Positions 15,341 through 64,000 of a stretch of DNA of 64,000 nt are shown here, in pieces. A program made the translations under genes and the position numbers. This stretch comes from Phoronis australis. Taxonomy: Eukaryota; Animalia; Phoronida. The stretch is from assembly GCA_002633005.1 (NCBI GenBank), contig NMRA01000025.1, forward strand, positions 469,502-533,501. The letters run 5' to 3'. The stretch's first letter is position 1, and every line of letters starts with the position of its first letter. The notes beneath the pieces were generated by a model, which ran no database searches, was not told the origin of the DNA, and saw nothing but the letters and a program-made list of their open reading frames with translations.

Positions 15341-17356
15341 AAGACCTCTTCAAATTCCGTTAGGAGAAGACGAAAGTCAGATTTGGAGGCAAAAGTTTTC
15401 TCAAGTACATCATAACGTCGAACGTAAATGACGAATTGTATCGAATGTGCGTGATTATTATTGTAATTTCTTTGTTTCGTATTAGTCTATCCAAATTCAC
15501 GACAATATACTTATTTCAATATTTTGGGTGTTTTTTTAGTCCGCGACCTGCACCTCGAGCTAGATGGAGTCCATGACCACTACAAATATGCTGTCAGGTA
15601 ACTTGCCGTATGCTTTAGACAGATCATCCTTCCATTTGACTCAGCAAGTGTTCACGAGACACAGTAGAAGATTGATTCCTAAATCGATGAACATAATTAT
15701 TCATGTACAATTTGCTGTTTTGATACCTGTTCTAGTTGGAAGTAAACACAGTTATTGAAAAGAAAAGTTTCAATGGGGTCTACAGTTCGTAGTGCTTAAG
15801 ATAAATATTTTATGAAACTATTCAGCCACTTTTATTTCACTACACTTGAGCAGCTATAGTAAATGTTGTAACCAGAAGAGTGCCTACATGTACATGTATA
15901 GTTGTTTTGCCCACCGCGTGACAAAAGACAAGAGCATCTGAAAGCGAGTGTGATTGCATCTCACACTTATTAAGCAAAAGCATCACGCAGGCGATATCTC
16001 GCAAAGACTCAAACAAGAATGCTGCCGCATCCGTAAACACAGTGTCTCACTTATAAACGTGGCGCTCGTACTTGAACAACTCAGTTTACTTACTCACCGC
16101 TCACCTACCGCAAACCAAGGTGACGGACTCACAAAACACTGCTTGCGCACCCAAACAAAATCGTGCCATGCTCACAAATGCGGATGACTGGCCGCCACGA
16201 ACTGATTGGGCTGAGTTCAGGCACGAGTTCTGGCTGAATAGGAAGCCGTGTCTTGTGAGTCCGCCCCCGTGTTCGGTGGTCGATGAGCCGTCTTTGGCGA
16301 TCTGTCACCAATTTTTGAGCCGTTAAACTAAGTTTATTGAGTGTAGCCTGAACTCTGCCTATGCGTTGCACAGCCGTGTTGTTCGTGTAGCCTGTCCGTG
16401 GATCCAACTCACACGCGGGGAAACTGAGCTAGTGTTAGACCGGCAGCCCAGAGCAATAGACTCAATCATTGCGTGCTAAAAGCAGCTGATCGATAACGTA
16501 GAGGCATTAATCAGGCGTGTTCGATTGGCCAGCAATACCAGGTCTGTGGTGCGTAGACGCAAGTTTTAATGAATGATTGAGTCTATTGTTCACCTAGAAA
16601 ATCATTACATTTCTGTAACAAGTCAAAAACAACATAAAAATCTTTGTTTAACGAGTTCCCGCAATGTTATTGATAGTGCATTGCTATTTAGTCTACCTGT
16701 GTGGTGCGCCTTGAAAATATCGACTTAGGTCTGCTGTTGAAAAACAAGTCTTAGCCCGGTCAAAGGATTTTAAACAAATGTACTGGAGCTATCGCGTAAC
16801 GCCGCTCTTACCGAACTTTCTAGGAAAGATTGCGCGATTGTTTTTTTTTTTTCAAGAAAACGCTGCTCCAATGCCTTAGCCAGTAACATTTTTGAACATT
16901 GCTCCTGCGTCTTCATTCACTATATATTTTGGGACGGCTGTTACATTGCACGGTTTGTGTTGCGGTATTTTCAGTTCAAAACCAATACCTCTCGGATACT
17001 CAGTGGTCCAGCTCAGGAAATGTAGTTCAGATGAAACTTGACTGTGCCTTTCACCACGACGATATCAACCTTAAATGTTTCTTTGAGAGTTTCCACCGAA
17101 GGACACCTAGCCTTTTCAAAAACAGATGTCTTGGATAGGTTGCTGTTTACGCTCTACCGGAAGTCCCGAAATCATGATATAGTAGTGCAGTTGCAATATA
17201 GTAGGACACTCAATTTAGATGACGTGGAGGAAACTAAGCAATAATTACCAGCCGCTACATGAAAGGTATTTGATCGGAAACCACACATAAAGAGCGTAAG
17301 GCAAATAATCAGGAATGTCCGAATAATATATAGTCCATCGTGACATAAACAATAAG

Positions 17357-18687
17357 GTATAAGTAGAATCAGCTCAGAGACTTTGAGTTCGTATGTTTCG
17401 TACAGCTCTCTACAGTCCTTTTTCAACGACTGATGACGGGACGTCCAGGTTTTTGCTGTTCTTACCTCAGGAAGTAAATTGACGTCGTAGATTGGCGGAA
17501 GCTGCAATCCCTGATCTCGATTCATGGTAGGCTTCTTAGTCTTGATATATGTAGATTCCTTAATCTTCCTTGAGGACCAGTTTAATTCCTCTTTAGCCAA
17601 GACCTTGGCATGTTTGCCACATACAGAATGGCCGGAGATTCTCAGACGTTCTCCCACGCCAGTGGGCTTGTCTAGTTTGTTTTGCTTTTTGATTCTGGTA
17701 CCCAGGGATTGCTTAGTCTCGTCCATGTAGGTATAAGACGGATCTTCAGTGCAATTGGCGATCAAAGGGCTGGGGTCCCTGGAGTGGATTAGCTGGTTTC
17801 TCAGGGTGTTTACGGGCTTCACATAGGTGTTGATGTCGTACGACTTGTACACTCGATGTAGATGTTCTGAGAGCCCCCTGATGTAAGGAATAGAGACTGA
17901 AAGTGATTTCTTCTCTTCTCGGTCCCCAGGGGGGGTTCCTAGGCCGACGTTGGGGGGGCTTGAATGCCCACTCCTGGTACTGGTTTGCTTTGAGTGCTGA
18001 CCTGACGTATTTAATATCAGCCTGGCGATCCTCGGGTCTTGTGACACAGTTCGTGGCCCTGTTAAAAACAATGCGAAGGACTGTTTGCGTTGATTCGGGT
18101 GGTTGGAGGCGAAGTAAATACTGGTCAGTGTGTGTCGGTTTCCGGTATATGGTGGTTCTCGTGGAGCCGTCATCGTTAATGTGAACACACAAGTCCAGGA
18201 ACCGGAGTTTGCCATCTGTTGTGTCATGTATCAACTGTCATGCACTGAAGGTCCGTCTTATACCTACATCGACGAGACTGAGCGATGCCTGGGTACTAGA
18301 ATCAAAGAGCACAACGTACTAGACAAGCCCTCTGGCGTGGGAAAACATCTGGGAATCACCGGCCATACTGCATGTGGCAAACATGCCAAGATCCTGCCTA
18401 AAAAGGAGAACTGGTTCTCACGAAAGGTTAAGGAATCCATGTATATTGATATTACCAAGCCCTCCATGAATCGAGAACAAGGATTGCAGCTTCCGCCCAT
18501 CGATGACGTCAGATACTACTTCTGGAGACCAGGACGGCGGGAAACCTGGACGTCCCGTCATCAGTCGTTGACAAAGGACTGTAGAGAGCAGTCTGAAACG
18601 TGCGAACTCACAACATTTTAATCGCTGAGTAAGTTCCTCCTACTTATACCATACCTTCACCGATACTATTAAAAACCTTTTTTCAAT
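17357..18687 (-). mobile_element. 5'-truncated Penelope-like element (RT C-terminus + GIY-YIG) with an inverted copy of the EN/pLTR segment
   Basis: Minus-strand ORFs carry PLE motifs (LRFLDL, TIYRKPTHTDQYL, IPYIRGLSE, YMDET..LGTRIK, RKIKES, MNRDQG). Segment 18222-18652 (+) is an inverted copy of 17357-17750. A 13-bp direct repeat, cataaacaataag, lies at 17344-17356 and 18688-18700 (candidate TSD). Confidence 0.9.
18561..18609 (+). ncRNA. Degenerate minimal hammerhead ribozyme (U3-A8 core variant); second copy at 17385-17433 on the minus strand
   Basis: agtcg TTGACAA A GGACTG tagagag CAGTCT GAAAC gtg cgaact, located in the PLE pLTR just after the ORF end. Confidence 0.55.
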
Positions 18688-18712
18688 CATAAACAATAAG
18701 CTTTTATTTTAG

Positions 18713-19280
18713 TTTACAAGGAGGCGCGACGTACGCTTCAATTGACGGCTGCACAGCTCTCTATATGGACGGAAGTGGTGATTTCGCTGATGTCTCCCCA
18801 GTTCCACAAATATCTTCTAAAAGCTTCACTATGGGTGCTTCTGTACGATTCTCGACGATTAACAGGTTCCACGGGATTCTTCAGGATTGGTCTTCACCCT
18901 GGCAGTTTAGACTGTATGTCACCGATGCAAACAAAGTTGCTATGAACTTAAGGAAAAATGAGCTCAGTGCTTCGGATTTATTGTTTGTAACATCGTCTGA
19001 GGTGGTTACGGCCAACAAGTGGTATCATATCGCCTTCACCAGAAATTTTGAGAGTGGGTCCTATGCCCTTTATATGAATTCTGTTAAAGTGGCAGATGGA
19101 ACATTGCCAGCAAGTACAACTCACATGATAAACAATCACATGTCATGGGAAATTGGCTACAAAAAAGACTCGTTGGACAACGTTCTTCATGGTTATATCC
19201 GCAACGTTTTTGTCTCCCTCGGTGTTCTATCGGTACACGATATCGAGACGTTGCTGCCTTCTCCTCCCGGCGTGTCGTAG
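18713..19280 (+). CDS. Terminal exon encoding a LamG/concanavalin-A-like (LamG_3) domain
   Basis: Acceptor ttttattttag at 18712, then an open frame LQGGATYASIDGCTALYMDGSGDFA...SFTMGASVRF...KWYHIAFT...YALYMNSVKV...WEIG...LHGYIRNVFV. Stop at 19280; AATAAA at 19467. Confidence 0.8.
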
Positions 19281-20136: not shown

Positions 20137-22636
20137 CTGGTGAAAATACGAAATTCGATGAACTAAAGCTAGTCGCTGGTCAGCTCAGCTATGATTCACT
20201 TGAGACATGCAACTTAGTTCGTACCAGCCCATCTGTGCTGGTTCTAAAATCAAGCTTCGTTTCATTGTGATCCAGTTTCGGGAAAATTCATTTTGTTATC
20301 ATGTTCATTGTTTGAAGAGATTTTTTGAAAAGGTGAGGACTCCAGGCCCCTGGTATGATGCCTTTGGGGCTGTTTCAAAATCCCTTGTTGAAACACGGTA
20401 ATAGTGTGATATATTGTGCCCGAATTTTGAGAACCAGTTTTCTCCACTAAATAACGGGCATCAAACTGGTTCTCAAAATACGGGTACGTTATATCAGACT
20501 ATTGGCCTGGTGGCGGGGGAAAATGATACAGAGTGTGTCCCAAAAATGTACACACTTCAACGCCTGGAGTTCAAATTCAGCTCCCGTAGATCACTGAGAA
20601 TATGCGTGAGCCTACTTCCTTCTTATTTTTAACGTAGGTGCATCGGTCATGAAGTGCTTCATCTGTGTAGCATGTACGGTAATGGTAAGCAAACGATTCA
20701 GTTTTGAAGAACAAAAATTCATCGCGCAATACTACTTGAAACTAAAAACATCAAGGAAGTGCAAAGACCACCTTTCCAACTTAATGTGCAATGAGTTCAA
20801 TTTTATTTGTTTAAGGACATAAACTTCTTTTAAGATCGCGGTTTGTTAATTTAAACCACTTGTCAATTTCCTAAGTCACTAAACAACTTATTGTCATTTG
20901 AATTGTGAGAACATTTAGAACTGCCGGACACTCATCTCTATCCTTGAAAATTATTTCAGATAAACAAAAATAGTTTAGTGCACTTTGCTATTTGGGAATA
21001 TGATGATAGATCGAATTTTCCAAATGTCAACCTGCAACTAAGTTCACTAAAGCATCGTCATTTCCTACGAGATTAGTTACTAATTGTCAAAAAAATCGTT
21101 TATTTATCGTTCGATTTTCGTAGATACATAAACATGTAAATCAGAAACCAACAATTGATTCCATGAGCAATCCATTTACCTTGATTTTGTGACTCAATTC
21201 CTTTTTGATCTCCTGTTATTGAGTTAAACGCCAAATCTTGTACCTAAAAAAATGAATCCAGGGCCCGGTCTCTAATCTTTGTACTCGAAACGAACTCGAA
21301 ACTATTTTTGGCAATTTCTCTGCTCCTTTTGTGCCAACTTAAGATAATTGGTTATCAGACTGTGCTCGNNNNNNNNNNNNNNNNNNNNNNNNNNNNNNNN
21401 NNNNCTGGTGAAAATACGAAATTCGATGAACTAAAGCTAGTCGCTGGTCAGCTCAGCTATGATTCACTTGAGACATGCAACTTAGTTCGTACCTGCCCAT
21501 CTGTGCTGGTTCTAAAATCAAGCTTCGTTTCATTGTGATCCAGTTTCGGGAAAATTCATTTTGTTATCATGTTCATTGTTTGAAGAGATTTTTTGAAAAG
21601 GTGAGGACTCGAGGTCCCTGGTATGATGCCTTTGGGGCTGTTTCAAAATCCCTTGTTGAAACACGGTAATAGTGTGATATATTGTGCCCGAATTTTGAGA
21701 ACCTGTTTTCTCCACTAAATAACGGGCATCAAACTGGTTCTCAAAATACGGGTACGTTATATCAGACTATTGGCCTGGTGGCGGGGGAAAATGATACAGA
21801 GTGTGTCCCAAAAATGTACACACTTCAACGCCTGGAGTTCAAATTCAGCTCCCGTAGATCACTGAGAATCTGCGCGAGCCTACTTCCTTCTTATTTTTAA
21901 CGTAGGTGCATCGGTCATGAAGTGCTTCATCTTTGTAGCATGTACGGGAATGGTAAGCAAACGATTCAGTTTTGAAGAACAAAAATTCATCGCGCAATAC
22001 TACTTGAAACTAAAAACATCAAGGAAGTGCAAAGACCACCTTTACAAGTTAATGTGCAATGAGTTCAATTTTATTTGTTTAAGGACATAAACTTCTTTTT
22101 CGATCGCGGTTTGTTAATTTAAACCACTTGTCAATTTCCTAAGTCACTAAACAACTTATTGTCATTTGAATTGTGAGAACATTTAGAACTGCCGGACACT
22201 CATCTCTATCCTTGAAAATTATTTCAGATAAACAAAAATAGTTTTAGTGCACTTTGCTATTTGGGAATATGATGATAGATCGAATTTTCCAAATGTCAAC
22301 CTGCAACTAAGTTCACTGAAGCATCGTCATTTCCTACGAGATTAGTTACTAATTGTCAAAAAAATCGTTTATCAATCAGTCGATTTTCGTAGATACATAA
22401 ACATGTAATTCAGAAACCAACAATCGATTCCATGAGCAATCCATTTACCTTGATTTTGTGACTGAATTCCTTTTTGATCTCCTGTTATTGAGTTAAACGC
22501 CAAATCTTGTACCTAAAAAATGAATCCAGGGCACGGTCTCTAATCTTTGTACTCGAAACGAACTCGAAAATATTTTTGGCAATTTCTCTGCTCCTTTTGT
22601 GCCAACTTAAGATAATTGGTTATCAGACTGTGCTCG
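20137..22636. repeat. 1.23-kb near-identical direct duplication across an N-gap (20137-21368 and 21405-22636), probably haplotype or assembly overlap
   Basis: Both copies abut the gap exactly and differ only by scattered SNPs. Confidence 0.9.
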
Positions 22637-39294: not shown

Positions 39295-41010
39295 ATTAAA
39301 AAATAACGGTTTTAAGACTTGACATGTTTCGGTGTCATTTATACAACACCGTCTTCAGAAGTGAGAATACAGTGGCCACCTAGCTAGGCCCAGCAATAAG
39401 TAATGAAGCACAGATACAGTCAGTTACAGGGAGTGACAATGAACTAGACGAAAAATGACAACCTGTGGTGTGTCAGTTGCCTATTGAGATTGGGCTTGCA
39501 CCAACTGATGTGTAAAGCCTCACGAATTTTAAGCTCCTTTGTTGTTACTGCCTGGTCTATTGCTGCAAAGTCATTGAAAGAGCACTGCTGATAACAACGA
39601 TTGGAGCTCTGTATCTGAATATTCACATGTGAATTCCTGTCAGAATTTAGATGTTCCTTGGTCCTGGTTTTCAAATGGCGAACAGTTTCGCCTATATAAC
39701 TGGAGCCACATCCAGCACAGATAAATTTGTATACCTTGGACCGTAGACCCGGCCATAGAAATTTTGTCCTTAGGGTTAAATAAATTCGACAGTTTTAGAG
39801 ACTTGAATGTTAATACAACTCTTAAGTTCACACAGTAATCATTCACCAATTTGTTGAGTTTTCGTTGAGCAATCTTGGCGTAAAGCCCAACATAGTACAT
39901 GTAGTTAGTTTTGTCTACAGGATGAACATCATCAGGGTACGTTGGAGTCTTGCTTTCAGTACCCTATTGAATAATTCTAGGGGATATTCATTCTTTTGCA
40001 AATTCGTTGTAAGTTCTTTAATATTAGAATCAAATCTAGCCCGAGTGTTGTTAATGCGATATACCCTGTCTGTTAGAGTTTTAATGAGACCTACTTTATA
40101 AACAAAGGATGCGAAGCTATGAAAACAAGTGTACAGTCCTGTGTAGGTCTTCTTATGAAATACTGATGTTATCACTGCTCAGGTACCCTCACGCTCCACT
40201 AACACGTCCAGAAATGGCAAAATGTTATCGACCTCTAACTCTACACTGAATTTCAAGTTAGGATGCGTCGAGTTTAAATACACCAAAAATTCCTGGGCTG
40301 ACTGCTGATTTTCAAATATACAAAACACATCATCTACATATCGTCGATAGAAATAGACGTGAGGACCAGTGTATGCCTCAATCCATGTTTTCTCATGGTG
40401 ACCTAAAAACATGCCAGCTAGTATGGGAGCCAAAGGTGAACCCATTGCTATACCATCAATTTGGTTTAAAACCTCCCCATTAAATACAAAATGGGTTTTG
40501 CTGGTAGCAAATTTGAATAGCTCCATGAGTTCAGCTCGAGTAATCTTTACACTGGGATTGTTTTTCATTATACAATCAGTAGCCAACGATATACATTCGT
40601 CCACAGGTAGCTTAGTAAACAAACTCGCAATATCAAAAAAGCCATGAAACGATTCCTGAGAATATGACCCCTAACCTCAGAAACAAAAGAGAATGTATCA
40701 CCTGTTGTGTAGTCCTCATTTACATGTGATTTGAGTAGCTTACATAGATACTTGGCAAGATTGTAATTGAAAGTATTCACAGATGACGCAACAGGTCTAA
40801 ATGGAGGGATGGAATCCATTGTCTGTTTGTGTATTTTAGGTAGACCATATAGTCTACCTGGCTGTGAACCTTGTGGATACAAATAGTTGTACGTTTCAGT
40901 ATCTATATAGGCGAACCGGTTCGCCATTTGAAAACCAGGCCCAAGGAACATCTAAATTGTGACAGAAATTCACATGTAAATATTCACCTACAGAGCTCCA
41001 GTCATTGTTA
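39295..41010 (-). mobile_element. Penelope-like element (RT + GIY-YIG, frameshifted) with an inverted EN segment at its 5' end
   Basis: RLYGLPKIHK, PFRPV, QIDGIAMGSPLAP, YRRYVDDVF, LPFLDV, KKTYTGLY, RTKEH, KIREALHI..KPNLN. Segment ~40900-41010 is an inverted copy of 39590-39698. Confidence 0.93.
39317..39362 (-). ncRNA. Minimal type-I hammerhead ribozyme with an intact core
   Basis: Minus strand reads ACUU CUGAAGA C GGUGUUGU AUAA AUGACACC GAA ACAU GUC AAGU: 4-bp stem I, 8-bp stem II, palindromic ACAUGU stem III and a GUC cleavage triplet. Confidence 0.85.
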
Positions 41011-51059: not shown

Positions 51060-53830
51060 TTTTACCCAGATATTTCTAAAGCTGCATATTTTTGCAAATT
51101 TGCACCAAGACAAATAAAAGGGTACACTTGAAAAGGCGATGTGAGACCCACTAAGCAACACGTTTATGGGGGTGGCCCCAATCCCTTGCCATGCTATACC
51201 ATGCGAAACGTAACGACCATTTTCCGTCTGTTGCTGTTCATGACTTCCCCGCCCCCTCCAAAAGTTGTTGCAAAAAAACAGCATATGGCGCTTGCTTGTG
51301 TCGCGAGCGTACTGTTTTCCAGTAGACGATAGAATTTTCTTGGCGAAGAGGACGGAGAATTATGCACGAAAGTGACGTTTATCACACTGTATTCCATTTA
51401 ACGTTTGTAACGAGCAAGGTGAGTGTCGGTTACCACTCACAGATTTCAAATGCACTTCTTCCAGACGTTAGATCCAAGTTTCATGCCAAGAAAACTTGGT
51501 AACACAAATCTATAAATTTAGTTCATAAATAAACTTTAGTCAGTTTTTGGAACGAGCCCCAAAACTATCCGGGCGGTGTGAAAATTCGACCTCTATATAT
51601 ATTTTCACGAATCGTTCCCTGGGTGCATTTTGACGCTAGTTGTACAGCTTTGCACTGAGGTTAGTCTTCATACAGTAGACTGGCTCGTGTATGTGTAGGT
51701 GGTTACCCATGTAAGTAACCTTGGTACAAAGCTGTATACTAAATATTTAGCTTTGCGCCGATGTGGGTAAAAAAGTGNAGGACGGAGAATTATGCACGAA
51801 AGTGACGTTTATCACACTGTATTCCATTTAACGTTTGTAACGAGCAAGGTGAGTGTCGGTTACCACTCACAGATTTCAAATGCACTTCTTCCAGGCGTTA
51901 GATCCAAGTTTCATGCCAAGAAAACTTGGTAACACAAATCTATAAATTTAGTTCATAAATAAACTTTAGTCAGTTTTTGGAACGAGCCCCAAAACTGTCC
52001 GGGCGGTGTGAAAATTCGACCTCTATATATATTTTCACGAATCGTTCCCTGGGTGCATTTTGACGCTAGTTGTGCAGCTTTGCACTGCAGTTAGTCTTCA
52101 TACAGTAGACTGGCTCGTGTATGTGTAGGTGGTTACCCATGTAAGTAACCTTGGTACAAAGCTGTATACTAAATATTCAGCTTTGCGCCGATGTGGGTAA
52201 AAAAGTGGTAAGATAAAATCTGACACAAAATTAGTGTCATTAAAAACTACAGTTTCCGTTGAGTAAACTACATTATTTAAAGGTGTTGGAAAAAATGTTG
52301 TTCTACCCTTATTCTCCTAATAGAGTTGAGGAGCGATCTTTAGCGACGACTTTCGGCGCCATGAAATATTACGTCACCTATTGGCCATTTTCTTTTTTGG
52401 CTGATTCTTCAATCAACTGTTGTTCTTTCACGAGGTTGCGTACACGTCACAACAATTTATCGCAACTGGTTTCACTTATACATAAGTTTTTAGAATATTG
52501 ATACCGAAAAACCGAATTTCAGAAAAAAAAATTTACTGCTGCCAAGCTATCATCATCTCCCGAGAGATGTCACAAAAATTTAGGAAATGGCGCGTGCGCG
52601 TGTCACGGGCGTACTGTTTTCAATACGACGACATAACTTTTCTCTGCTAGAAAAGGCGGAGGATTGCGCAAGAAAATGACGTTGACGAGCAGAATTTAAT
52701 GTTTCTTATGGTTATGAGTCAACGGAAAATTCGAGCGCATGTGGTTAGACACTAAAACTTTGACGAGTCGAGGCTCCTTACTCCAACTGTCCCAAATCCA
52801 AATAAAATCGGTGTGCATCTCCCTCAGACTGGTATTGCATAAACCTTTGAAGCCTTATCTTTCATTGATCCCCTTAAATTACCCCTGTGGGTGGCCGTGA
52901 ATTAGCGACGAATATTTCAAAACAATCTCTAAACTCTTAATTCAAGGACCCAAAATAGTAAACATGGCAGATTCCAGTTGTGCTTTAACTTGTACGCCTG
53001 TCGAAGATGAAATTTCCAGTTTGAGCAATCAATTTATCGGGTCCCCAATTTAAATGATTGAGGTTACTAAAAAAATCCTTTCATTTCTGTATAATGTGTT
53101 CCTCCTCATGCTCCTTTTATCAGTTGCAAGAACGGGCGTATCTTGTGTTTGATCTTGTTGAAGCATAACGAAAGCTCGGATTTTGGCGGAGATTTCCGAT
53201 GACTTATCGCACGTTTAGTTGCGGTAAATCATCCAATGAGATAAATATAACTATATATGTAGCTCATTTAGTGTACAGGTTTGTACCAAGGCTAGCTGGC
53301 TGACTACTATGTAAGTAGCCTTGGTATATAAATATACAGCTTTGCACCGATGTGGGTAAAAAAGTGGTAAGATAAAATCTGGCACAAAATTAGTGTCATT
53401 AAAAACTACAGTCTTCCTTGAGTATACAAAATTATTTAACAGTGTTGGAAAAAAATGGCGTTCTACCGTTATTCTGCTGCTAAAGTTGTGGAGCGTTCTT
53501 TAGCGACGGCTTTCGGCGCCATGAAATATTGCGTCACCTATTGGCCAGTTTCTTTTTTCGCCGATTCTTCAATCAACTGCTGTTCTTTCACGAGCTTGCG
53601 TACACGTCACAACAAATTATTGGAACTGGCTTCACTTCATTATAATTTTTTAGAATTTCGATACCGAAAAACCGAACTTCAGAACAAATTTTGCTTCTCC
53701 GAAGTTGTCGCGAAAATTTAGGAAATGGCGCGTGCGCGTGACACGAGCGTATTGTTTTCGAAACGACGACATACTTTTCATTGTTAGAAAAGGCGGAGAG
53801 TTACGCAAGAAAATGACGTTTATTGCATTG
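51060..53830. repeat. Intronic repeat cluster: gap-flanking duplicate (51349-51777 and 51779-52207) plus diverged ~0.5-kb units (52130-52690 and 53270-53830)
   Basis: Near-exact duplicate around the N at 51778. Shared blocks such as gatgtgggtaaaaaagtggtaagataaaatct and ttcggcgccatgaaatatt. Confidence 0.85.
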
Positions 53831-54179
53831 TTTTTCACTTAAACGGCTGTAACGGGCAACGTGCGTATCGGTTGATTCCCAGATTTTGCATGCACCCCGT
53901 CCGGTCTTTAGCTTTACATTTTGATACAAGTTTCACGGCGCGGTGACGAGCAGAACTACCCTGGCTGCGTGCAATTTCGGGGTCTACGGAACAAATACAT
54001 ACAGTGGTATCTAGCTGTATTTGGACGACAGTCATCATACAGCTAGCTGGCTGACTACCATGTAAGATGCATGCATTTGAGACTCATTACTAGAAAATCA
54101 GGTAACTGTATGACGACCAGCGTCAAAATACATATTTATGCATTTTAAGCACATTTTTGTATCAAGGCCAACTCATTAC

Positions 54180-54980
54180 CAACTGACGATGTAGTGTTTC
54201 TGTTTCTCTCGAACGCTTAAATATGCTTGGTACGCCCAGTTTAACGTAAGCCATGTCTTCGAAAGTTAATCCCAAACGATCTTTGACCAAAACCAAGCCT
54301 TCATCTAAATATTCAGCCACAAGAATAATGTCGAAGTGAGACCAAATATTAGCTATAACTGTTGAGGTCTGCTTCTCGTCCGTAGCATTTGTAGAAGCAG
54401 GCATTCCGAATTCTCGTAGAGTGGGATTGGGAAGAGGTATTTTGCATTTTCGCTTGAAGATCTTCTTGATGTACTTTGCAGGCGATTCCACGAAATGGCC
54501 AAGTACATTTCGTGTCTCTGGAATTTGCAAACACTGCCGAATATCCCATTGGTAGACACTGAACAAATATCTCAGTACGTCCTCCGGATGGCTTATAACA
54601 GTAATGTATACGGATTTACTTAAGCTTATTATCTTTTGCAAACGCTTGAAAATTAGCGGGACGCGGTGAACCAGGATGTCGTAACTTCCAGTTTCTGTAG
54701 ATCGATGAACAAGAAAAGGTTTTCCAAACTCATATCCTTTATCCGGTAAAGCAAAACGCAGGTGTCGACTTTCACCATATCTGAACATAATGTTTTGGAG
54801 CGAGTCACCGGCGGCACCAGACGTTTTGAAAAATAGCAGTTTTTGTTTTTTGAGCGGCTTTGATTCAGACGGGCTTAAGGTATTGTAGAAAATGTGCATT
54901 AAACACGTTGCAATTCCAACGGCAGCACCACTAATGAGGATTTTTAGACGACGATTCCTGAACTGTGATGAACAAAACAT
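54180..54980 (-). CDS. Exon 1 of a galactose-3-O-sulfotransferase-family type II membrane protein (376 aa after splicing)
   Basis: ATG at 54980 and an N-terminal TM anchor. Reads LLFFKT....SLQNIMFRYG...LRFALP and FDIILVAEYLDEGLVLVK..L. Donor TTG|GTAATG is phase 0 and matches exon 2. Confidence 0.88.
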
Positions 54981-56949
54981 TTCGTATCCTTTCTGGCTAC
55001 TTCATAAGAAACGACTAAAACTACCTACACCTGAACGTGCATCTCAAATCTCGTGCATGACTCGGTGGATTATTAATACAATCATGTGTCTTAGATGTCT
55101 ATGGTCTTGACCATAGACATCTTAATACTATGGTCTTGATGTATTCAAATTAAATGTGCAATCACTCAGGTTTGATCACTCTGAAAAGTCAAAGCGGATA
55201 AAGTTCCAAGACGCCAATTTTCTACTAAGCGTATTTACAGTACATGTAGGTGGATTAGAAGGCAGACATCCACTAATATAGTTACAAAAACATAACGGAG
55301 CTAATTTTTTTATAACTCTGGGGATGAAAGCTCAAAACTTATAGAAATTTGTCTGTCCAACATTAATCTCACTGAAAATGCGTTTTTGGTCGTAAAACCG
55401 ATTATGTCCAATTAAAACATAAACAATAGCCATAATCACGATGGGGTGTAAGACCTTTCATAAAAAGGCTACACATCTTTCCCCTAAACGCTGTTCTTGT
55501 ATCTGGCACGCATTTCGCACTTTTGAACGCAAATGCGTACTGCCCAAGTGCAGTGATTCTCATTTGATGATCATGGACCTGTTTCATGAAAAGTGACTCA
55601 AGACTTAGACAGAAATTATGTGTTATGGTGCCACTTCAATATTAGGTCTTATGATGCCACTTTAAAATCGTCAAATAAAGGTTTAGTCCTTAACTCATCA
55701 ATGCCTGGAATAGTAAGTAACATTTGTTGGTGTATCTGGGTACATTATTCTTTTCTAAAGAGAGTTTTTAGTTATTTTCAGAAATAGCTATGCGCGGCGT
55801 CACCAAATTTCTCTTTTAAGTCTTTTAAGTGACTTTTACGAAACAGATCCCATGCCTGTTAAAATTCAATGTTCAAACAAGAAACAAGAATGTCGCAAAA
55901 GTGAAGTCGAGTTATTTGTTTTGAAGTTATAAAACGCAAAGTTTCTTTTTCGTGGAATCTCAGTAAGATTCACCTCGCCTCTCGGGACCTGAAACTCGGA
56001 GGTCTCTGGGCAGTAAGCGAATGCAAGTTAGTGTTTTTTTCTACCGTAGCTGAGTCTAGTTTTCCCCTTTTAGTTTATCATCACAAAATTTTCCAAATGC
56101 ACGTTCGCACAAGACAATATTATAAAAATCAATGAAAACCAGTTTTATTTAACGGACCATTAGCGGGGTATCATAACTGAGAAATATGCAACTAATTGTT
56201 TTCTTTTGAAACAAGGTAAATTCCGTCATTCAGGAATTTGTTCAGGATGAAAAACACTCTATTGATATTAATACTGAAAATGAAATACAAATTTAAAAGG
56301 CATTCCTAATATTTTATGTTAAAGAGGTGATCAATCGAAATTCATTTAGTGGTACTAACAAAGTAGCAGCGGTGATCGGTAAAGAATCGAGAGCATTTTG
56401 ATTGGATGGTGAAGTTTAATCTGAGGAAGGACCCAGCTTTGCTCAAAGGAGTAACCTAGCTTGCTCCCAACAGTAAGCTAAAATGTTTTCTTGACATTGG
56501 TCAAGAAAGGACCGTTTGCAGCAGCAAGTTCGGGTGCTTGCCCATGAAAGTACGTGTATGACCGCCATCTGATGGGCTTCCCGTCTACCCGTGTTTGTCA
56601 GCTACCAAGCTTCAACAATGGGGCAAGACTGGTCGTATTATTCCGAACAATGGGGGTAGCTACTCCATTCAGTGACCTATTAGATCGGATATTCATGCAG
56701 TGTGTTTTGTATGGTGGTTTTTGACCAAACGAGTTGCGTGCAGTGGTTCAATTCTGTAGTTTTATGTAGCGGGTGTGCTGTGTCTTTTCTAGTATTTGCT
56801 GATCGCAGCACCCTTTGAAGACAATGAAAGCGGCAGGTAAGCAAGATGTCAGGAGATCGAGCTTTGAACTGTGATTAATGGTCATGTTTAACCAACAAAC
56901 CCGTCTGAGGTCACTGGCTGCATGGCCGCGCCTTGAGCATAACAGCTTT

Positions 56950-57845
56950 GTGGTTTGAACCGATCGTACAGTAATGTAGCAAATTTAAAGTAGACTTGAA
57001 CACGTCAGTGACGGGACATGCGTTTCCCAGGATTGTCAATCAATCGTGAACGGGCATACATTTGGGGCAAAAATCGTTATGCAGTACTTGACACTTAAAG
57101 CGGAACTGGTTTAAAACGAAACCGATTGTAGTCGCTCAAGCAAAATAGGTTGATTAGTCTATTTAGAAACCTATGTAATGAGTGCGTAACGCTGGATAGA
57201 CACATGTGTCCGACTCCGTTCCATAAACCTTTGATTGCCTTGACTAGATCAACTATAGTTGTATCAGCCAGCTATTCAGTTGCAATGTTTATTCAAGTCG
57301 TTTTTAATTGTATAAGGAAATTACTGGACCGGATTCAGTGTAGGCCTAAGTGCTCCCTGCTCCCGGATTCCATCCAAGAAAGATAGTTTTTCGTGCGAGG
57401 GAAAGGCAAGTCATGTGTGATTTCGTAAAGTACACATGTACGTGTCTTCACTAGCAATGCATCATCTATCATTACACGGGTGTTCTCACCAAAAGCCACT
57501 AGAGGACACTCTTGGTAAGCCAGCGTCCGCTCCGTAGACGCAAGACACTCGCAAGAACTATCTGGCAATGAAGGGTAACAGTTAAAGAAATCGACAAAAT
57601 GCAAGTACGTGTACATTACGGGAACGCAATAGGAGGAAACAAGAATACCTCAACTGAAATGACAAAAGCAGTGTGGGCGGTGCTTTTTTCATAAATTACC
57701 TTCTGATGAAAAGCAGGAAGGAAAGTTGGAGTCCATACCTGAAAGCAAGAAAGAAAGGAGCAGGATACTTTCACATGCTTGGACGCTATTTGCCGCCCGC
57801 TGCCGTGACCTCAATTCAACCTGTGTGAAAGGACCTCGTCAATTA
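56950..57845 (+). pseudogene. Decayed DDE transposase fragment (Kolobok-Hydra / Mutator-like type)
   Basis: Broken frames read VSDGT, EIDKMQ..HYGNAI..N...EMTKAVWAVLF, ESWSPYLKA and LP....IQPV*KDL, in the order expected for this family. Confidence 0.7.
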
Positions 57846-57862
57846 ACACTCAACTGTTATAT

Positions 57863-58216
57863 ACAGTGGCAGATCTAGGATGCCATAAGGGGGGTCGGGC
57901 CCAACATGTTGCCTTGGAGAATTGGGCAAAGCGTGATTCAGGCGCCCTGAAAGTTTCGGGGGCCGGCGATGTGACCTAGTGTTCCAAAAATCTATCGGAG
58001 GACTAAAAAAAACAAAAGAAAACGGAACGTCAACTCGATTCCGCCGCGCGCTCCTGACCGCCCCCCCGGCCTCCCCTCCCTCCTCGTCCGCTGCCATTCC
58101 TAGTTGGTGAACTTTATGTTTCCTCACGTTTCACGCTGTTGCTCTTTGATTTTGCTTGCATCAGCCAAGGAGGGAGGGCCCGGGCCACCTGCCCCCCCCC
58201 CCTGAATCCGCATATG
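57863..58216. mobile_element. Short non-autonomous element with CAGTGGC.GATC / G-run and C-run termini; relatives at ~59854-60015 and ~63680-63755
   Basis: cagtggcagatctagg..gggggg at the left end and ccccccccctgaatccgcatatg at the right end. Confidence 0.55.
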
Positions 58217-58619
58217 ATATAATGCTGGGCCGGACACAAACAAAACAAAACGATCGAATCTCAATTGCCAGTTTAAACGATGGTGTCAGTTAGTTTCGTG
58301 TTGGTGCTGGAGAGAATGATGGGAGTGGAGCCGGAGACTGGTCTTTTTAGGGTTGCAAATGCACAATGACAAGCTTTCTTGGCCTCAAAGGAGCTTCGCA
58401 GAGCTAGGATGCAAAGCTAAACTTGGACTAGAAGAGCACCAAAAAACAGGAGCAGAAAGACCAGCCTTCCGTACAGGGGCTTTCTGACATAATTACTTTA
58501 ATACAAGTGATCAGATTCTGCGTGCCGAGAGTTACATCATATTTTCCACAAATATGGATGGATTTTCTAGAAATTTTGAACACAGCTTGTATGATGCACT
58601 TTCTATGGTATGTAGCAGG

Positions 58620-58695
58620 CATTTTAGCCCCTTGTGAGTAGGGACATTTAGCCCCTTGTGAGTAGGGACATTTAGCCCCTTGAGAGTAGGGACAA
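58620..58695. repeat. 24-bp tandem repeat, 3 copies
   Basis: tttagccccttgtgagtagggaca repeated three times. Confidence 0.95.
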
Positions 58696-58937
58696 TTTTA
58701 TTGTGATGAGCGCATCTCACTTGAAGGATTTTGTCACGCCATTTTGGTTGGAGCAGTGATGAAAAGCAGGCATCCCAGCGGATCATCTGAAGTTCATACT
58801 AAAGACTGAATTAATTTCAGAACTGCATTTAAATAATTGTTATTGATCATTTTCCCATTTATTTAAAACAAAATTTCTATCAGAGTTTACTTTATTATTT
58901 GAATCCAAGACTTCCAGGGGGACTGCTCTAACTGCAC

Positions 58938-58938
<1 letters not shown>

Positions 58939-58981
<43 letters not shown>
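58939..58981. repeat. (GTATAT)n microsatellite
   Basis: Seven tandem hexamers. Confidence 0.97.
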
Positions 58982-59022
58982 CCTACGTTAATCTGCATTG
59001 TATAAATGAAAGTTTTTTGCAG

Positions 59023-59170
59023 CTGTCGCTGTCCTTGCTCTTGTGAGTCTCGTGAGCTTCTCCGTGGGAAAAGATACAATCAAGTGCTATAGTTCAGACC
59101 CTGACACAGGGAAACAAAAAAGGGTATACACCATCGCTCATGGCTTCGACTGGGGCGCGTACGAATACCT
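59023..59170 (+). CDS. Secreted solute-binding-protein-like gene, exon A (signal peptide + start of domain)
   Basis: ttttttgcag| xVAVLALVSLVSFSVGKDTIKCYSSDPDTGKQKRVYTIAHGFDWGAYEY-L |gtaagt; enters in phase 1, exits in phase 2. Confidence 0.8.
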
Positions 59171-61210
59171 GTAAGTTAGATCATTTCTCGCCAGGAAGCA
59201 CGTCGCAACATACTCGGGGCATTCACACGGGGCCTGCGTAGAGTTGCACTGTGTCTCGTACCGAGAACGACAAAATTACTACTTGTACTCAGATGAAAAA
59301 ATGTTGCAACGTACAGGATCGGCGTAGTATCTGCGTAGGTTATATGCTGTCGTTTTCAGTTGGAGACTGTCGTAAGGTAGCGTATTATTGCGTAGGCAAG
59401 ACTTACGGTAACGTCACGTGGTGTTGCGTAGTTTTCCGTAGACTTGATTTATTTAAACTTGACACTTTCTTCGTCCAGTGCTCGATCGACGAGTTTGTCC
59501 GTGAGGTGGGAACTATCATTCGTGGGCAGCTATTAATCTGCAGGGAGAGGTTTTAAGTTGTTATGTGCACGAGCGTTAAGGAGTGCGGAAGGGGAATATA
59601 CGTGGCACACTAGAACGTGATCACACTAACGTACTTTACTGGTGAAACTCTAGTGTCTACTGAACGCATGTAACCTTGCTGTTTTCGTCGGTCCAGTGCC
59701 TTAAGGTTCAATTAAGTAGGCTTGGCGTACAGTAGCGTGGTGTTGGGTAGATTTGCATAGACTTTGTAAACTGGGAACTTTTTGCGTCCATTATTCTTTG
59801 CCGAAAGAACGCGACTTCTATCTCGCGCACCCAGTGTAACCTAGCGTAGACACCAGTGTCTGATTTAGAGGGGGCCAAGGGGTCTATGCCCCCCCTAAAA
59901 TTCTCCCAGATTCCATTGGACAGTTAGGGGATGCGAATTTCTGGCTGGCAAAATCCTGGCTGATACTATGCTCTGNNNNNNNNNCCCCCAACTCAAAATC
60001 CTAGATCCACCCCAGGTCACAGCATGGGACACCGTAAGCTCGGTCAAAATTTCCACATGTGTGTGCATCTATATTCTGATATCGAAACTTACCGTTCTCC
60101 CGGGTGCACAAAGTCTGAGGACCTGATGCTGATCGAATTCCTTATAGGAAGAAGTCAACCTTTCGTTTACTAACGGTAAGACCTCGCTAAAAACAAAGAT
60201 TACGTGAGACATTGCCGTGTATTTTAAAATAGAACACATGACTTTGACTAGATGTTAGCTAGGTAGGTCCTCAGTGTTACTGAACGCACGCCAGGTTAAA
60301 CATCAACGTCTGTTGCAAAATAAAGCGTTTTTTACCACGAAATGCTTTTTCCGTTAAACACTGAACTTAGCCCAGTTACCGCTATAAAATTGGTCTCAAT
60401 TAGCTCCTAACTTAGACGAAAAGTGATTGCTGGTCTTGCGCAGAGCTGACTGCACCAGACCATACTCCGCGAGTGAATAAAATGACACGCCATGACAAAT
60501 CAACTCTTACAGTTTGTTCTCATCCAGTGACGAAGTGCCTGCTTTTCCCTGGAAAAATCACATCTATTTCGAATAAAGAACAATTTGAGACCAACTCGTC
60601 GCGTTAAGTGGTTTAGAAGCTGGATTTGTGTGGGAAGGCGATATTATTTCTCAAAATGTTGATTAGAACTGAATATGGCTTCCCTCACTTCTTCCCTATC
60701 AACAGTTTATGTGTCGTTGACAACGAAAAATACTCATATATTTCAGGTTATTTATCTCTCTGTATATACTTTAGAAACAATTCGTAACATCGTTTTTGGC
60801 GAACAATACATAGAAAACAATGCCTGTGTATGAGAGATTCATGTGAATCTGGGAACACATTCCTGAGATCTTATGTTATTTTTAAAACTGTGTAGGACTT
60901 ATAAAATGATCAAAATGGGCTTAAATTCCGGAATATCGTATCTCAGAAATAGCTCATGCTTCCGTACCGCTCGCCATAATTCTGTTAGAAATAATTGTTT
61001 TGCATCAGAGGCTATTATAATATAGGACTGGCTGGTATAAAGTTGAAAATCGAGCTCTTCGACATTCTACTTTCAGAAAATGCATAATCTAGCGTTGCTA
61101 ATTTCCATAGTTTTGTGGATATTTGGTTAAATTCACAGATTTTGGATAGGTCTTACATAACAAACGAACTTGCCCGATGAGGAAAACGTTTGCTCCTTTG
61201 CTCATTACAG

Positions 61211-61260
61211 GGACTCAGGCGGCTTCGTGCGAGGACTGATGTTAGATTTGATAATTGAAG
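61211..61260 (+). CDS. Solute-binding-protein-like gene, exon B
   Basis: cattacag| DSGGFVRGLMLDLIIE-V |gttcgt; enters in phase 2, exits in phase 1, compatible with both neighbours. Confidence 0.8.
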
Positions 61261-61751
61261 GTTCGTATTACCAGTTTGAGTATCACTTGGTAAAGTGAAC
61301 AGTTTGGCTTTTGTCAGACATTCCAAACGTAACGCTGCAACGCCGTAACTGAGAAGTCCTTCCCATCTTCTAAGTATTCGTAATTTGGCAGTACAGTTTC
61401 AAGATTTTATGCTTTCATATTAACAATAATCAACATTTTTTCCCAAGATGAATTTTAACACCATGTAGTTATGCACGGGGACCCTGTGCCTGCATGACGG
61501 ATGACCAGCCAACGGTTATGTGCCGCTTGATCATAGTATGATTTGTTATCAGGGAGCCAACTGTACCCTTCGCTAGTTCTTCTCTTCTTCAATACAACTG
61601 CAGTATTACAGAGCCCATTTTTCCAGAGACAAAATCTACGTATAGAGTAAAGGAAAGATATTTAAATCTTCCACTCTCCCTACCGCAAACTAAGACTAAT
61701 CATCCGGGATAGTGCTATTGTTGTGTTTAACTGCGCTCTTATGTTTGCCAG

Positions 61752-62012
61752 TGTGCGCTGCAGCCGGCATCGATTGTCTGTCTGTGTGGGAGCCTTATAC
61801 AAACTGCGTGCAGTCGTTGGCGGGCCAGCATATGCGTGGTGGAGAGGGCCTCATGAAGGGTTGGTACGACGGTTGTATTGGCTGGGCAGTGTCTGTCTCA
61901 AGAACTGCTTTCTTCAAATTCTCTGAGAGCTTCTTAAAGGCCAGTCGCGCGTCATTTTACGTAAAGGCCGACACGACGATTGATGTAAACAACTTCAACA
62001 AATACAGAATCG
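61752..62012 (+). CDS. Solute-binding-protein-like gene, exon C
   Basis: tttgccag| CAAAGIDC...GLMKGWYDGCIGWAVSVSRTAFFKFSESF...FYVK...RI-G |gtgagt; phase 1 to phase 1. Confidence 0.85.
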
Positions 62013-62341
62013 GTGAGTTAACTTCAAGGTCATTGTTCGCATTTATTTAGAAAAGTTCAAAAACGACTCGACATTTCCATTTAGTCGCAAAGCCATTGTC
62101 AATGCGACTTTTCCTTACAATAAATATGTGCTCCGTTTTTTTTGCTGAGACATTTCTTGTGAAAATAAATATGACCGAAAGATATGACCATTTCTTGGTT
62201 GATTTTTTATGAACATACACTGAAGTGCATCACATCAATCGTATTTGTGCTGACCATTCTATTGTGAGGTTTTAACAAAAAATAACAGCAAAATTTAATT
62301 TGTAAGATCGAATGCTGTTAAAGTCTCTCTTCCTGTTTTAG

Positions 62342-62469
62342 GGTTCATGGATGGTTGGGTTGATGATGAAAAATGCCTCGCGCGCCTGACAGACAAAGTT
62401 CTACCCGCCAATCAAATATTTTACTACAAGAATTCGGTGGAACTGAAAAACGCCATACTTTCGGGCGAA
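62342..62469 (+). CDS. Solute-binding-protein-like gene, exon D
   Basis: ctgttttag| FMDGWVDDEKCLARLTDKVLPANQIFYYKNSVELKNAILSGE |gtaagt; enters in phase 1, exits in phase 0. Confidence 0.85.
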
Positions 62470-63169
62470 GTAAGTGCAGGGACACGTCAATCTTTCAGAT
62501 TGAAAAACCATGTGCTTTAGACGGACAGTATAGGGCTGTAGGATCGAGATACACCACAATGGACCAATTGCGATACGTGCCGCTGAGTTACGACAGTTTT
62601 TGAATCCTTGTGATTGGGTTTGAGTTGTGAAACTAGACAACATACAACTTTTCACAAAAGTGTTAAAATTTTTCAACAGACTAACACATGTACTTTGGAC
62701 TGGCAAATTAAACTTTCACAAACTTAGGCAGTCTTAGAAAATGGTTAGTAGGCCTAAATAAATTATGATGAGTGCCACGTGACGTGCATTTCTCAGTATG
62801 CAACGAAGATACGCAAATTCGCTATTTCTAGTTCTGTTTCTGAGCTCTAGTGCTCGGGGATTTTCTTTTCTCAATAATTTATACTAAACTCCACTGATGA
62901 TCGTATGTTATACATGCACACAGAGGCCATGTTACAGATGACAGGAAACGGAATGGCCCACTTGTGTCCACCAAACTTTACGCATACTTCTAAAGTTGAC
63001 CAACCGCGCGCTATTCTTTAAACATTTTTGCAATTGCACGTGATTTAATTGGTCCATCCCTAATAAAGTTTGGTGGACAATTACTTGAACTACTCGAACT
63101 TACTGTAATATATATAATTTTTCATTTAATTTCGTGCTCAAGAGTAAATGATTTTCTGTGCATACAACA

Positions 63170-63287
63170 ACGTACTCCAAGTTTACACTAAATGATCCTC
63201 CAATATTCTAGTTTACACTAAATGACCCTTCAACATTCTAGTTTACACTAAATGGCCCTCCAACATTCCAGTTTACACTAAATGACC
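63170..63287. repeat. 30-bp minisatellite running into an N-gap
   Basis: gtttacactaaatg..c..caa.attc.a, about 4 copies. Confidence 0.9.
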
Positions 63288-63867
63288 NNNNNNNNNNNNN
63301 NNNNNNNNNNNNNNNNNNNNNNNNNNNNNNNNNNNNNNNNNNNNNNNNNNNNNNNNNNNNNNNNNNNNNNNNNNNNNNNNNNNNNNNNNNNNNNNNNNNN
63401 NNNNNNNNNNNNNNNNNNNNNNNNNNNNNNNNNNNNNNNNNNNNNNNNNNNNNNNNNNNNNNNNNNNNNNNNNNNNNNNNNNNNNNNNNNNNNNNNNNNN
63501 NNNNNNNNNNNNNNNNNNNNNNNNNNNNNNNNNNNNNNNNNNNNNNNNNNNNNNNNNNNNNNNNNNNNNNNNNNNNNNNNNNNNNNNNNNNNNNNNNNNN
63601 NNNNNNNNNNNNNNNNNNNNNNNNNNNNNNNNNNNNNNNNNNNNNNNNNNNNNNNNNNNNNNNNNNNNNNNNNNNNNNNCGGGCAAAATCCTGGCTAATA
63701 CTCTACCCTGACCCTCCCCCCAAACTCAAAATCCTGGATCGCCCCCACCCCCCCGTTTATACACTACCTGTGTTTTGTGTATTAGACTTAATATGGCGAT
63801 TTCTTAGAATAGCAACGATCATTGTTGTGTGCTCGGTTTTTGATTTGATCCCTTGGCACCATTTAAG

Positions 63868-64000
63868 GTACATGCTGGTCACATTGAAGAAGGGGTTTTA
63901 GAAACGTACATCACCGGCATGGCGAACCCGCTGCTGAAGAGGGTGGGGCCTTGGCGAACATGTGTTTTGCGCGGTGACGCTCTGATGACTGCATTAGATT
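63868..64000 (+). CDS. Solute-binding-protein-like gene, exon E (open to the window edge)
   Basis: atttaag| VHAGHIEEGVLETYITGMANPLLKRVGPWRTCVLRGDALMTALD; phase 0, giving ...AILSGE-VHA (compare SBP 'L..G.vDA'). Confidence 0.7.

Follow-up and report, generated by a model that had tools for sequence, protein, structure and literature searches.

Stand-alone solute-binding proteins (SBPs) are treated as prokaryotic parts, and the known use that animals make of their fold is as a domain of glutamate-gated channels. A locus at the end of a 64,000-nucleotide stretch of the Phoronis australis genome (GenBank assembly GCA_002633005.1, contig NMRA01000025.1, positions 469,502 to 533,501 of the forward strand; the whole stretch is called the window, and positions are counted from its first letter) raises the question of whether an animal can also possess such a protein in free form and, if so, what it binds and where it comes from. 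An earlier note, drawn up from the letters alone, had read positions 59023-64000 as an intron-containing gene for a secreted protein of this bacterial type. We found that the gene is built from at least six exons and that it is spliced and expressed. By profile and predicted fold, it is a member of the SBP_bac_3 family (PF00497), lies outside the LAO/HisJ subfamily and is no ionotropic glutamate receptor (iGluR).

Gene structure and expression

The original model joined five GT-AG exons on the + strand into one frame. Its internal exons at 59023-59170, 61211-61260, 61752-62012 and 62342-62469 have AG/GT ends, show phases of 1/2, 2/1, 1/1 and 1/0 and join without a stop, and among nine candidate acceptors after 62469, that at 63868 is the one that carries the homology on. 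In order to assess these junctions, we used the stranded RNA runs X2, X3 and X4 of one study and a spliced contig, X1, of a second study, which is presumed to derive from RNA. The four predicted junctions were crossed, in order, by 16/15/197, 17/13/192, 19/10/158 and 18/20/230 reads in X2/X3/X4, with mates whose direction always corresponded to + strand RNA, and the single X1 contig crosses all four and continues for 494 letters past the window end. Every predicted junction was thereby backed by transcripts. The model had missed the exon with the start codon: an upstream joint, 56836>59023, was covered by 11/14/310 reads in X2/X3/X4 and adds a first exon with an ATG at 56824 and an in-frame stop just upstream of it. 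With this exon, the part of the frame inside the window comprises 244 stop-free codons.

Exon 1 (56686/56714-56836), with read ends clustering at 56686 and 56714 in X4, carries the 5' untranslated region (UTR) with three upstream ATGs, the start codon, 13 coding bases and a GT donor. Exon 2 (59023-59170) encodes the rest of the predicted signal peptide (approximately residues 1-20) and the first strand of lobe 1 with W48, which falls in the column of Tyr14 of LAO, and exon 3 (61211-61260) encodes a hairpin and a helix of the same lobe. In exon 4 (61752-62012) lie C72, C79, C89, C112, Y86, W115 and R121, followed by a hinge strand and the start of lobe 2; the R121 codon (61901-61903) corresponds to Arg77 of LAO, which contacts the alpha-carboxylate of the ligand. 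Exon 5 (62342-62469) continues lobe 2 with W163, D166, E167 and C169, and exon 6 (63868-64000, phase 0) contains E207 in the LAO Asp161 column, C232 and the second hinge strand before it runs off the window. The window end thus cuts the gene; relatives extend about 40 residues further, including the last two family cysteines, and in this part of the present gene a C-terminal anchor or a tandem domain might conceivably follow.

The depth of the second exon was 184 in X4 compared to 11.8 in X2 and 11.0 in X3, a difference of roughly 16-fold at similar read amounts. Eleven of the 12 coding variants among those listed were synonymous, with 0.23 expected per random change; 55 further variant rows lie outside this count.

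Several alternatives for the start of the protein were rejected. An N-terminal extension from the upstream ATGs was ruled out, as these hit stops or sit out of frame, and an ATG at 59006, within the acceptor, is intronic and out of frame. As just one upstream joint was found within 53900-59300, we likewise dismissed the idea that a different first exon yields a membrane-anchored protein. The three ATGs of the 5' UTR (56695-56823, +) open two in-frame upstream open reading frames (uORFs) of 9 codons and 1 codon and an out-of-frame one of 35 codons, and these uORFs may damp translation. The last 17 bases of intron 1 (59006-59022) repeat the coding start of exon 1 in their first seven letters and its end in their last four, out of frame, which is perhaps chance or a trace of the origin of the intron. 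Dispersed repeats at 57870-57940, 59850-60260 and 63680-63740 within the introns gather reads of many other transcripts from both strands, and the last intron holds a 392-base N gap (63288-63679). No paralogous exon was found in the window by tblastn or with the family profile.

Family membership, architecture and predicted fold

Submitted to Pfam singly, four exons gave no relevant match, and the family assignment rests on the joined frame and its homologues. When the longest exon served as the query of a full phmmer scan, 95 proteins were returned at E<=0.001, most of them 270-350 residues long. The proposed membership in SBP_bac_3 was confirmed on these homologues with HMMER: the curated PF00497 cut-off of 26.4 bits was passed by 29 of the 30 scanned, and all 61 aligned members matched at E<=0.05. 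The window protein itself, whose PF00497 match is thus read on its homologues, scored 226 bits on the animal-family profile, aligned with the family through residue 244, its last in-window residue, and was 44% identical over 218 amino acids to its nearest relative, P0100 (BLASTP, E 2e-62). On the NCBIfam models TIGR01096, ArtJ and HisJ, animal members reached 24-50 bits, below the cut-offs of 256-522 bits, of which 256 is that of the LAO family. Further searches added little: exon 4, used in a word-based search of longer proteins, left none of 23 candidates, the deep family alignment contained no segment of sufficient conservation for scanning genomes, animal and bacterial queries against the ESM Atlas returned generic bacterial SBP_bac_3 clusters only, and a plasmid search gave matches of just 21-30% identity, five of them annotated as substrate-binding proteins.

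Only cysteines and an arginine are invariant in the family. The extra cysteines pointed out in the earlier note proved to be conserved, with all eight present in 53 of 56 animal rows and in 20 of 23 rows of a cysteine-rich bacterial type, whereas the 7 algal/protist-like rows have no more than six and the 15 rows of ordinary SBPs no more than three; the cysteine-rich bacterial and algal/protist-like rows were assigned by likeness, and only one algal protein is named. The eight cysteines would form four disulfides. The signal-like N-terminus was likewise recovered, as the hydropathy of the window protein peaks at 2.09 at residue 1. This value is milder than in the 33 of 61 members, about half of the family, whose N-terminal segment is strongly hydrophobic (2.6 or more) and is likely an uncleaved anchor. 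The milder peak resembles a signal peptide, through which the window protein would be secreted. Taken together, the protein is predicted to be a secreted, disulfide-stabilised, two-lobed molecule of about 285 residues. Tandem forms with two or three domains (P0001, P0003, P0025, P0020, P0028 and P0082) occur separately in a mollusc-containing clade, in the alga Prasinococcus and among bacteria-like proteins, and hydrophobic C-terminal tails were seen in P0028, P0082 and P0047.

An AlphaFold2 model was made of P0008, a secreted homologue with 35% identity to the window protein, and had a predicted local distance difference test score (pLDDT) of 91.7. Foldseek placed LAO first (E 9e-17), at an identity of just 15-20%, and in a wide VIA search the bacterial SBP-type domains scored Z 23.2-21.6 (best root-mean-square deviation 2.4, 222 residues aligned). 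A model of a cysteine-rich bacterial member, with a lower pLDDT of 75, likewise matched LAO. These results bear out the PBP2 fold proposed earlier and lead us to predict this fold, with two hinge strands, for the window protein. At the level of profiles, the family matched 146 PDB sequences, the best 60 of which were all of bacterial or ancestral SBP type (best single-domain E 6e-20).

The same fold is found in iGluRs, and the gene could in principle encode a freed iGluR ligand-binding core or the front of a longer receptor with membrane exons past the window, where its 3' end lies. The P0008 model indeed scored Z 21.4 with GluR0, 19.9 with AvGluR1 and 17-19 with other iGluR cores, so that the gaps to bacterial SBPs are modest, and the iGluR-type domain PF10613 was matched weakly in 2 of the 61 members. 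The stronger argument comes from the architecture. As the earlier note had stated, no membrane segment separates the lobes: they are contiguous across exons 4-6 by residue 244 and have no hydrophobic insert at the hinge, and therefore no iGluR pore is present. Furthermore, 56 of 61 members stop within 12 residues of the last cysteine, of the 59 members with sufficient length for the test, none contains a 19-mer with a hydropathy of at least 1.9 in its last 225 residues, and neither Lig_chan nor any other ion-channel family was listed for the 61 members. The eight-cysteine pattern is common to stand-alone bacterial proteins, no iGluR appears among the best 60 of the 146 PDB matches, and P0010 alone matched the bacterial SBP STM4351 with E 9e-7 compared to E 0.79 for the GluD1 core. 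We regard both a freed receptor core and the front of a longer receptor as very improbable.

The ligand pocket and possible functions

In LAO, lysine is held between Tyr14 and Phe52, with Arg77, Asp161, Asp11 and Ser72 as further binding residues (PMC4917951). In order to compare this pocket with that of the window protein, the LAO numbering was transferred by alignment. The Arg77 column holds an arginine in all 101 other aligned rows and R121 in the window protein, and the aromatic sandwich corresponds to W48 and Y86. The contacts to the amino group fared differently. An acid at the Asp161 column was found in 2 of 56 animal rows, in 10 of 15 ordinary and in 21 of 23 cysteine-rich bacterial rows; serine or threonine at the Ser72 column occurs in 9 of 56 animal versus 12 of 15 canonical rows, with A116 in the window protein; and at the Asp11 column the window protein has G45, the family mostly lacking Asp11, Asp30, Ser72 and Asp161 in this alignment. 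Two aromatic positions have been added instead: the Leu71 column is aromatic in 52 of 56 animal versus 3 of 15 canonical rows (W115 in the window protein), and the Ser120 column in 45 of 56 versus 0 of 15 (W163). Both also occur in the algal and bacterial branches, and by alignment the four aromatic columns flank the cleft.

The likeness to bacterial amino-acid-binding proteins, which the earlier note had emphasised, therefore holds for the arginine and the sandwich aromatics but fails for most of the Asp/Ser contacts in the family, and their loss makes the label 'amino-acid-binding' doubtful. A conventional binder of arginine, lysine, histidine, glutamine or an opine, serving uptake or sensing as the automatic names imply, would explain why LAO, HisJ, ArtJ and GlnP are the best matches in sequence and fold, and it would fit the retained Arg77 and sandwich residues and the glutamate of the window protein at the Asp161 column; SBP_bac_3 proteins are also reported to prefer basic amino acids (PMC10443332). 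The low identity to these fold matches, the NCBIfam scores far under the LAO-family cut-off and the missing amino-group contacts speak against it, and we consider it rather unlikely. Betaines, on the other hand, are held by ProX-, Opu- and EgtU-type SBPs with an aromatic cage plus a basic residue (PMC9732360). Since the arginine is conserved, the amino-group contacts are mostly lost and aromatics have been added, a ligand with a carboxylate and a bulky or methylated cation is suggested. We tentatively propose, from the alignment, that it might be a betaine-type osmolyte or a similar modified amino acid rather than arginine, lysine or histidine.

Alternatively, the protein might be an extracellular enzyme on an SBP scaffold, similar to cyclohexadienyl dehydratase, in which the arginine would grip the carboxylate of a substrate. 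Cyclohexadienyl dehydratase is among the profile matches (5jos, E 3e-12), and acids and histidines of the cleft region are partly conserved (D47 in 31, D166 in 35 and E167 in 34 of 56 rows, and histidine at column 51 in 16 of 56). These candidate catalytic residues are, however, not kept family-wide or in the algal and bacterial branches, unlike the invariant cysteines and arginine, and an enzymatic role appears improbable to us.

Overall, we favour, with moderate confidence, a secreted two-lobed protein that likely closes on a small carboxylate-bearing solute and does not belong to an ion channel. According to this proposal, the protein would be secreted from the cell, its four disulfides would form, and its lobes would close like a clamshell around a solute in body fluid or mucus. 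R121 would hold the carboxylate of the ligand, and W48, Y86, W115 and W163 could hold a bulky or N-methylated cation. The solute would then probably be held or carried, buffered or presented to a transporter or receptor, and the N-terminally anchored paralogues would act as capture proteins or co-receptors at the cell surface.

A number of observations weigh against this proposal. The fold is that of P0008, which stands in for the window protein, and the LAO numbering was carried over by sequence alignment via an LAO-like proxy (L035), the alignment having a gap of one residue at Ser70. With E207 at the Asp161 column, the window protein could still bind an alpha-amino group. It departs from conserved family columns at H202, H205, A242 and L243, and its reading stops about 40 residues short of the family C-terminus. 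A second hydropathy peak of 1.78 at residues 62-80 aligns with a helix of the folded domain in the P0008 model, and the only non-synonymous change among the listed coding variants, L9F, falls in the signal region.

A wider version of this proposal, which we regard as unlikely on present evidence, is that both bilaterian branches keep an anciently transferred family of secreted and surface flytrap proteins that captures betaine-type osmolytes or related dissolved solutes and feeds them to transporters or receptors. If true, this would represent an unrecognised, bacterial-style layer of scavenging or sensing at the animal body surface.

Distribution, origin and comparison with known systems

The earlier note had expected uncharacterised homologues in other marine invertebrates, and named members from six animal groups were found when source names were looked up for 30 of the 95 clusters. 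They come from the cephalochordate Branchiostoma, the echinoderms Strongylocentrotus, Amphiura and Anneissia, the hemichordate Saccoglossus, the brachiopod Lingula, the molluscs Elysia and Haliotis and the annelid Owenia; in addition, the alga Prasinococcus was named. Their database names are automatic only ('arginine-binding ... -like' or 'uncharacterized'). No fungal, choanoflagellate, sponge or cnidarian name occurred among the looked-up clusters, most hits carrying no source name. An 'IG' motif of lobe 2 was present in 17 of 28 short hits, and in 13 of these the homology ends right after the motif, at the position of the intron of the window gene at 62013. The short hits resemble single exons predicted on genomic contigs, so that an ancient intron common to these genes is suggested. 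An abundant marine branch (P0083, P0101-P0114 and P0143-P0146, with 32 members in one cluster) has extra C-terminal cysteines and probably represents plankton transcripts.

Outside the animals, two bacterial-looking hits (P0082 and P0020) led to an Acidobacteriota genome (L001, a 539-kb contig) and a metagenome contig (L002), and 48 more proteins of the cysteine-rich bacterial type were collected (P0152-P0199). A profile of 59 presumed animal rows gave 70-107 bits for 48 bacterial rows, 80-107 for algal/protist-like rows and 15-70 for 14 ordinary SBPs, and a profile-profile comparison of the animal family with the cysteine-rich bacterial clade yielded a probability of 99.8% (E 6e-30). The Acidobacteriota member (L001:5899-6792), unlike its relatives, has no recognisable in-frame start or signal peptide, perhaps because of damage to the 5' end.

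For the phylogeny, 102 domains were aligned and the careful tree was built from 57, leaving out 45 close or redundant rows, with an outgroup of 12-15 rows and no iGluR core among all the rows. Rooted on ordinary SBPs, the cysteine-rich group was a single clade (100/100) within which bacteria (100/99), algal/protist-like rows (100/99) and animals (81/81) formed clades of their own. In the best tree, animals and algal/protist-like rows were joined at only 89/77 and the bacterial clade was their sister outside, on a long stem; grouping the animals with the cysteine-rich bacteria was not rejected (p-value of the approximately unbiased test, p-AU, 0.225). A position of the animals as sister of four LAO/HisJ-like rows was rejected (p-AU 4.4e-6). 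The clade of the window protein includes Lingula and Branchiostoma proteins, and Lingula occurs in two deep branches, which suggests that several copies already existed in early bilaterians. From these results, an early bilaterian likely already possessed the family, whose ancestor would be the same as that of the rare cysteine-rich bacterial clade, and they make horizontal transfer at some point in its history plausible.

Of the old bacterial transfer that had been suggested for the gene, the integrated and intron-split state and the kinship to cysteine-rich bacteria stand; the analysis with bacterial SBPs put the bacteria as sister rather than parent, with the animals not nested among them and no direction given by the tree. 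An old eukaryotic family that was lost in many lineages, the cysteine-rich bacteria having received it from a eukaryote or being an equally old sister, is a serious alternative that in our estimate falls somewhat short of an even chance. It would agree with the pairing of animals and algal/protist-like rows and with the shallow bacterial clade (46-84% identity to its first member), whose type was seen in a single one of 301 genomes from the phylum and of 401 from the order, in both cases that of L001 itself. Consistent with it, none of the six L001 neighbour open reading frames scanned out of 28 listed was recognised as a permease or ATPase of an ATP-binding cassette (ABC) transporter. The unrejected grouping of animals with bacteria argues against it, as do the full set of eight cysteines common to these two and reduced in the algal/protist-like rows, and the lack of names from other eukaryotic lineages among the looked-up clusters, with the reservation about unnamed hits made above.

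That the gene is integrated in an animal genome follows from its spliceosomal introns, its spliced RNA and neighbours with animal-type exons. A galactose-3-O-sulfotransferase exon (PF06990, E 4e-27; 54165-55001, - strand) lies head to head with it, about 1.7 kb off, and is spliced at approximately 54178; with a depth of 9-30 in X2/X3 and no reads in X4, its expression is the mirror image of that of the SBP gene. A laminin-G/pentraxin-like exon (PF13385, E 1.5e-14; 18693-19277, + strand) belongs to a different gene. Broken frames at 1510-3891, 17175-18618 and 39447-40951 resemble, and are presumably, remnants of retroelement reverse transcriptases/endonucleases. Two segments, 20137-22636 and 51349-52207, contain tandem copies that are almost identical (98% over 1233 bases; 99% over 429) and flank N positions; these copies are likely assembly artefacts of two alleles.

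Together, these data describe a family of free SBPs that is expressed and conserved and spans several animal phyla, with secreted, membrane-anchored and tandem forms and a pocket that has been remodelled. Marine invertebrates with soft bodies absorb dissolved small organic compounds, respond to them and keep osmolytes in large pools, and the family offers concrete candidates for the handling of such compounds. Being small and probably stabilised by disulfides, its members are also scaffolds for biosensors, and ideas on gene transfer at the base of Bilateria or earlier can be tested on them. The family is apparently undescribed beyond automatic database labels: no description was found in the literature searched, whose coverage largely excludes subscription journals and genome-paper supplements with possible transfer tables, and the accessible part of PMC8050422 contains nothing on eukaryotes.

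Compared with bacterial family-3 SBPs (LAO 1laf/1lst, HisJ 1hsl, ArtJ 2pvu, STM4351 2y7i and the GlnP SBD 4kqp), the window protein shares the predicted PBP2 fold over the whole domain, the equivalent of Arg77, the aromatic sandwich, the Cys38-Cys45 pair of LAO and a predicted export signal. It differs from them by its intron-split animal gene, an identity of only 15-20%, six further conserved cysteines, an 11-residue insert in lobe 1 and a pocket in which the amino-binding Asp/Ser are mostly replaced and two aromatics are added, and the sampled LAO/HisJ-like rows were rejected as its nearest kin. We know of no ABC importer partner in animals. With iGluR cores (GluR0 2pyy, AvGluR1 4io2, GluK2 1yae, plant GLR3.4 7lz0; PF10613), the family has in common the fold, at Z 17-21, and the contact between arginine and carboxylate, whereas its domain is unsplit by a pore, lacks membrane helices and scores lower against them, in sequence and structure, than against bacterial SBPs. 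Sponge proteins labelled SBP_bac_3 are described as iGluRs in a preprint (bioRxiv 10.1101/120998). The putative aromatic cage with a basic residue recalls quaternary-amine SBPs (AfProX, OpuBC/OpuCC and EgtU) and the ectoine-binding EhuB (2q89; Z 19.6 with the P0008 model) in principle only, as the aromatics occupy other positions and none of the 61 members matched the OpuAC family of Pfam. Finally, AChBP and odorant-binding proteins offer a functional analogy, as invertebrates secrete both as free ligand binders with disulfides; their folds are unrelated to that of the SBP family. AChBP is a freed receptor domain; the SBP family, unlike it, stands nearer to free bacterial proteins than to the animal receptor with which it shares the fold.

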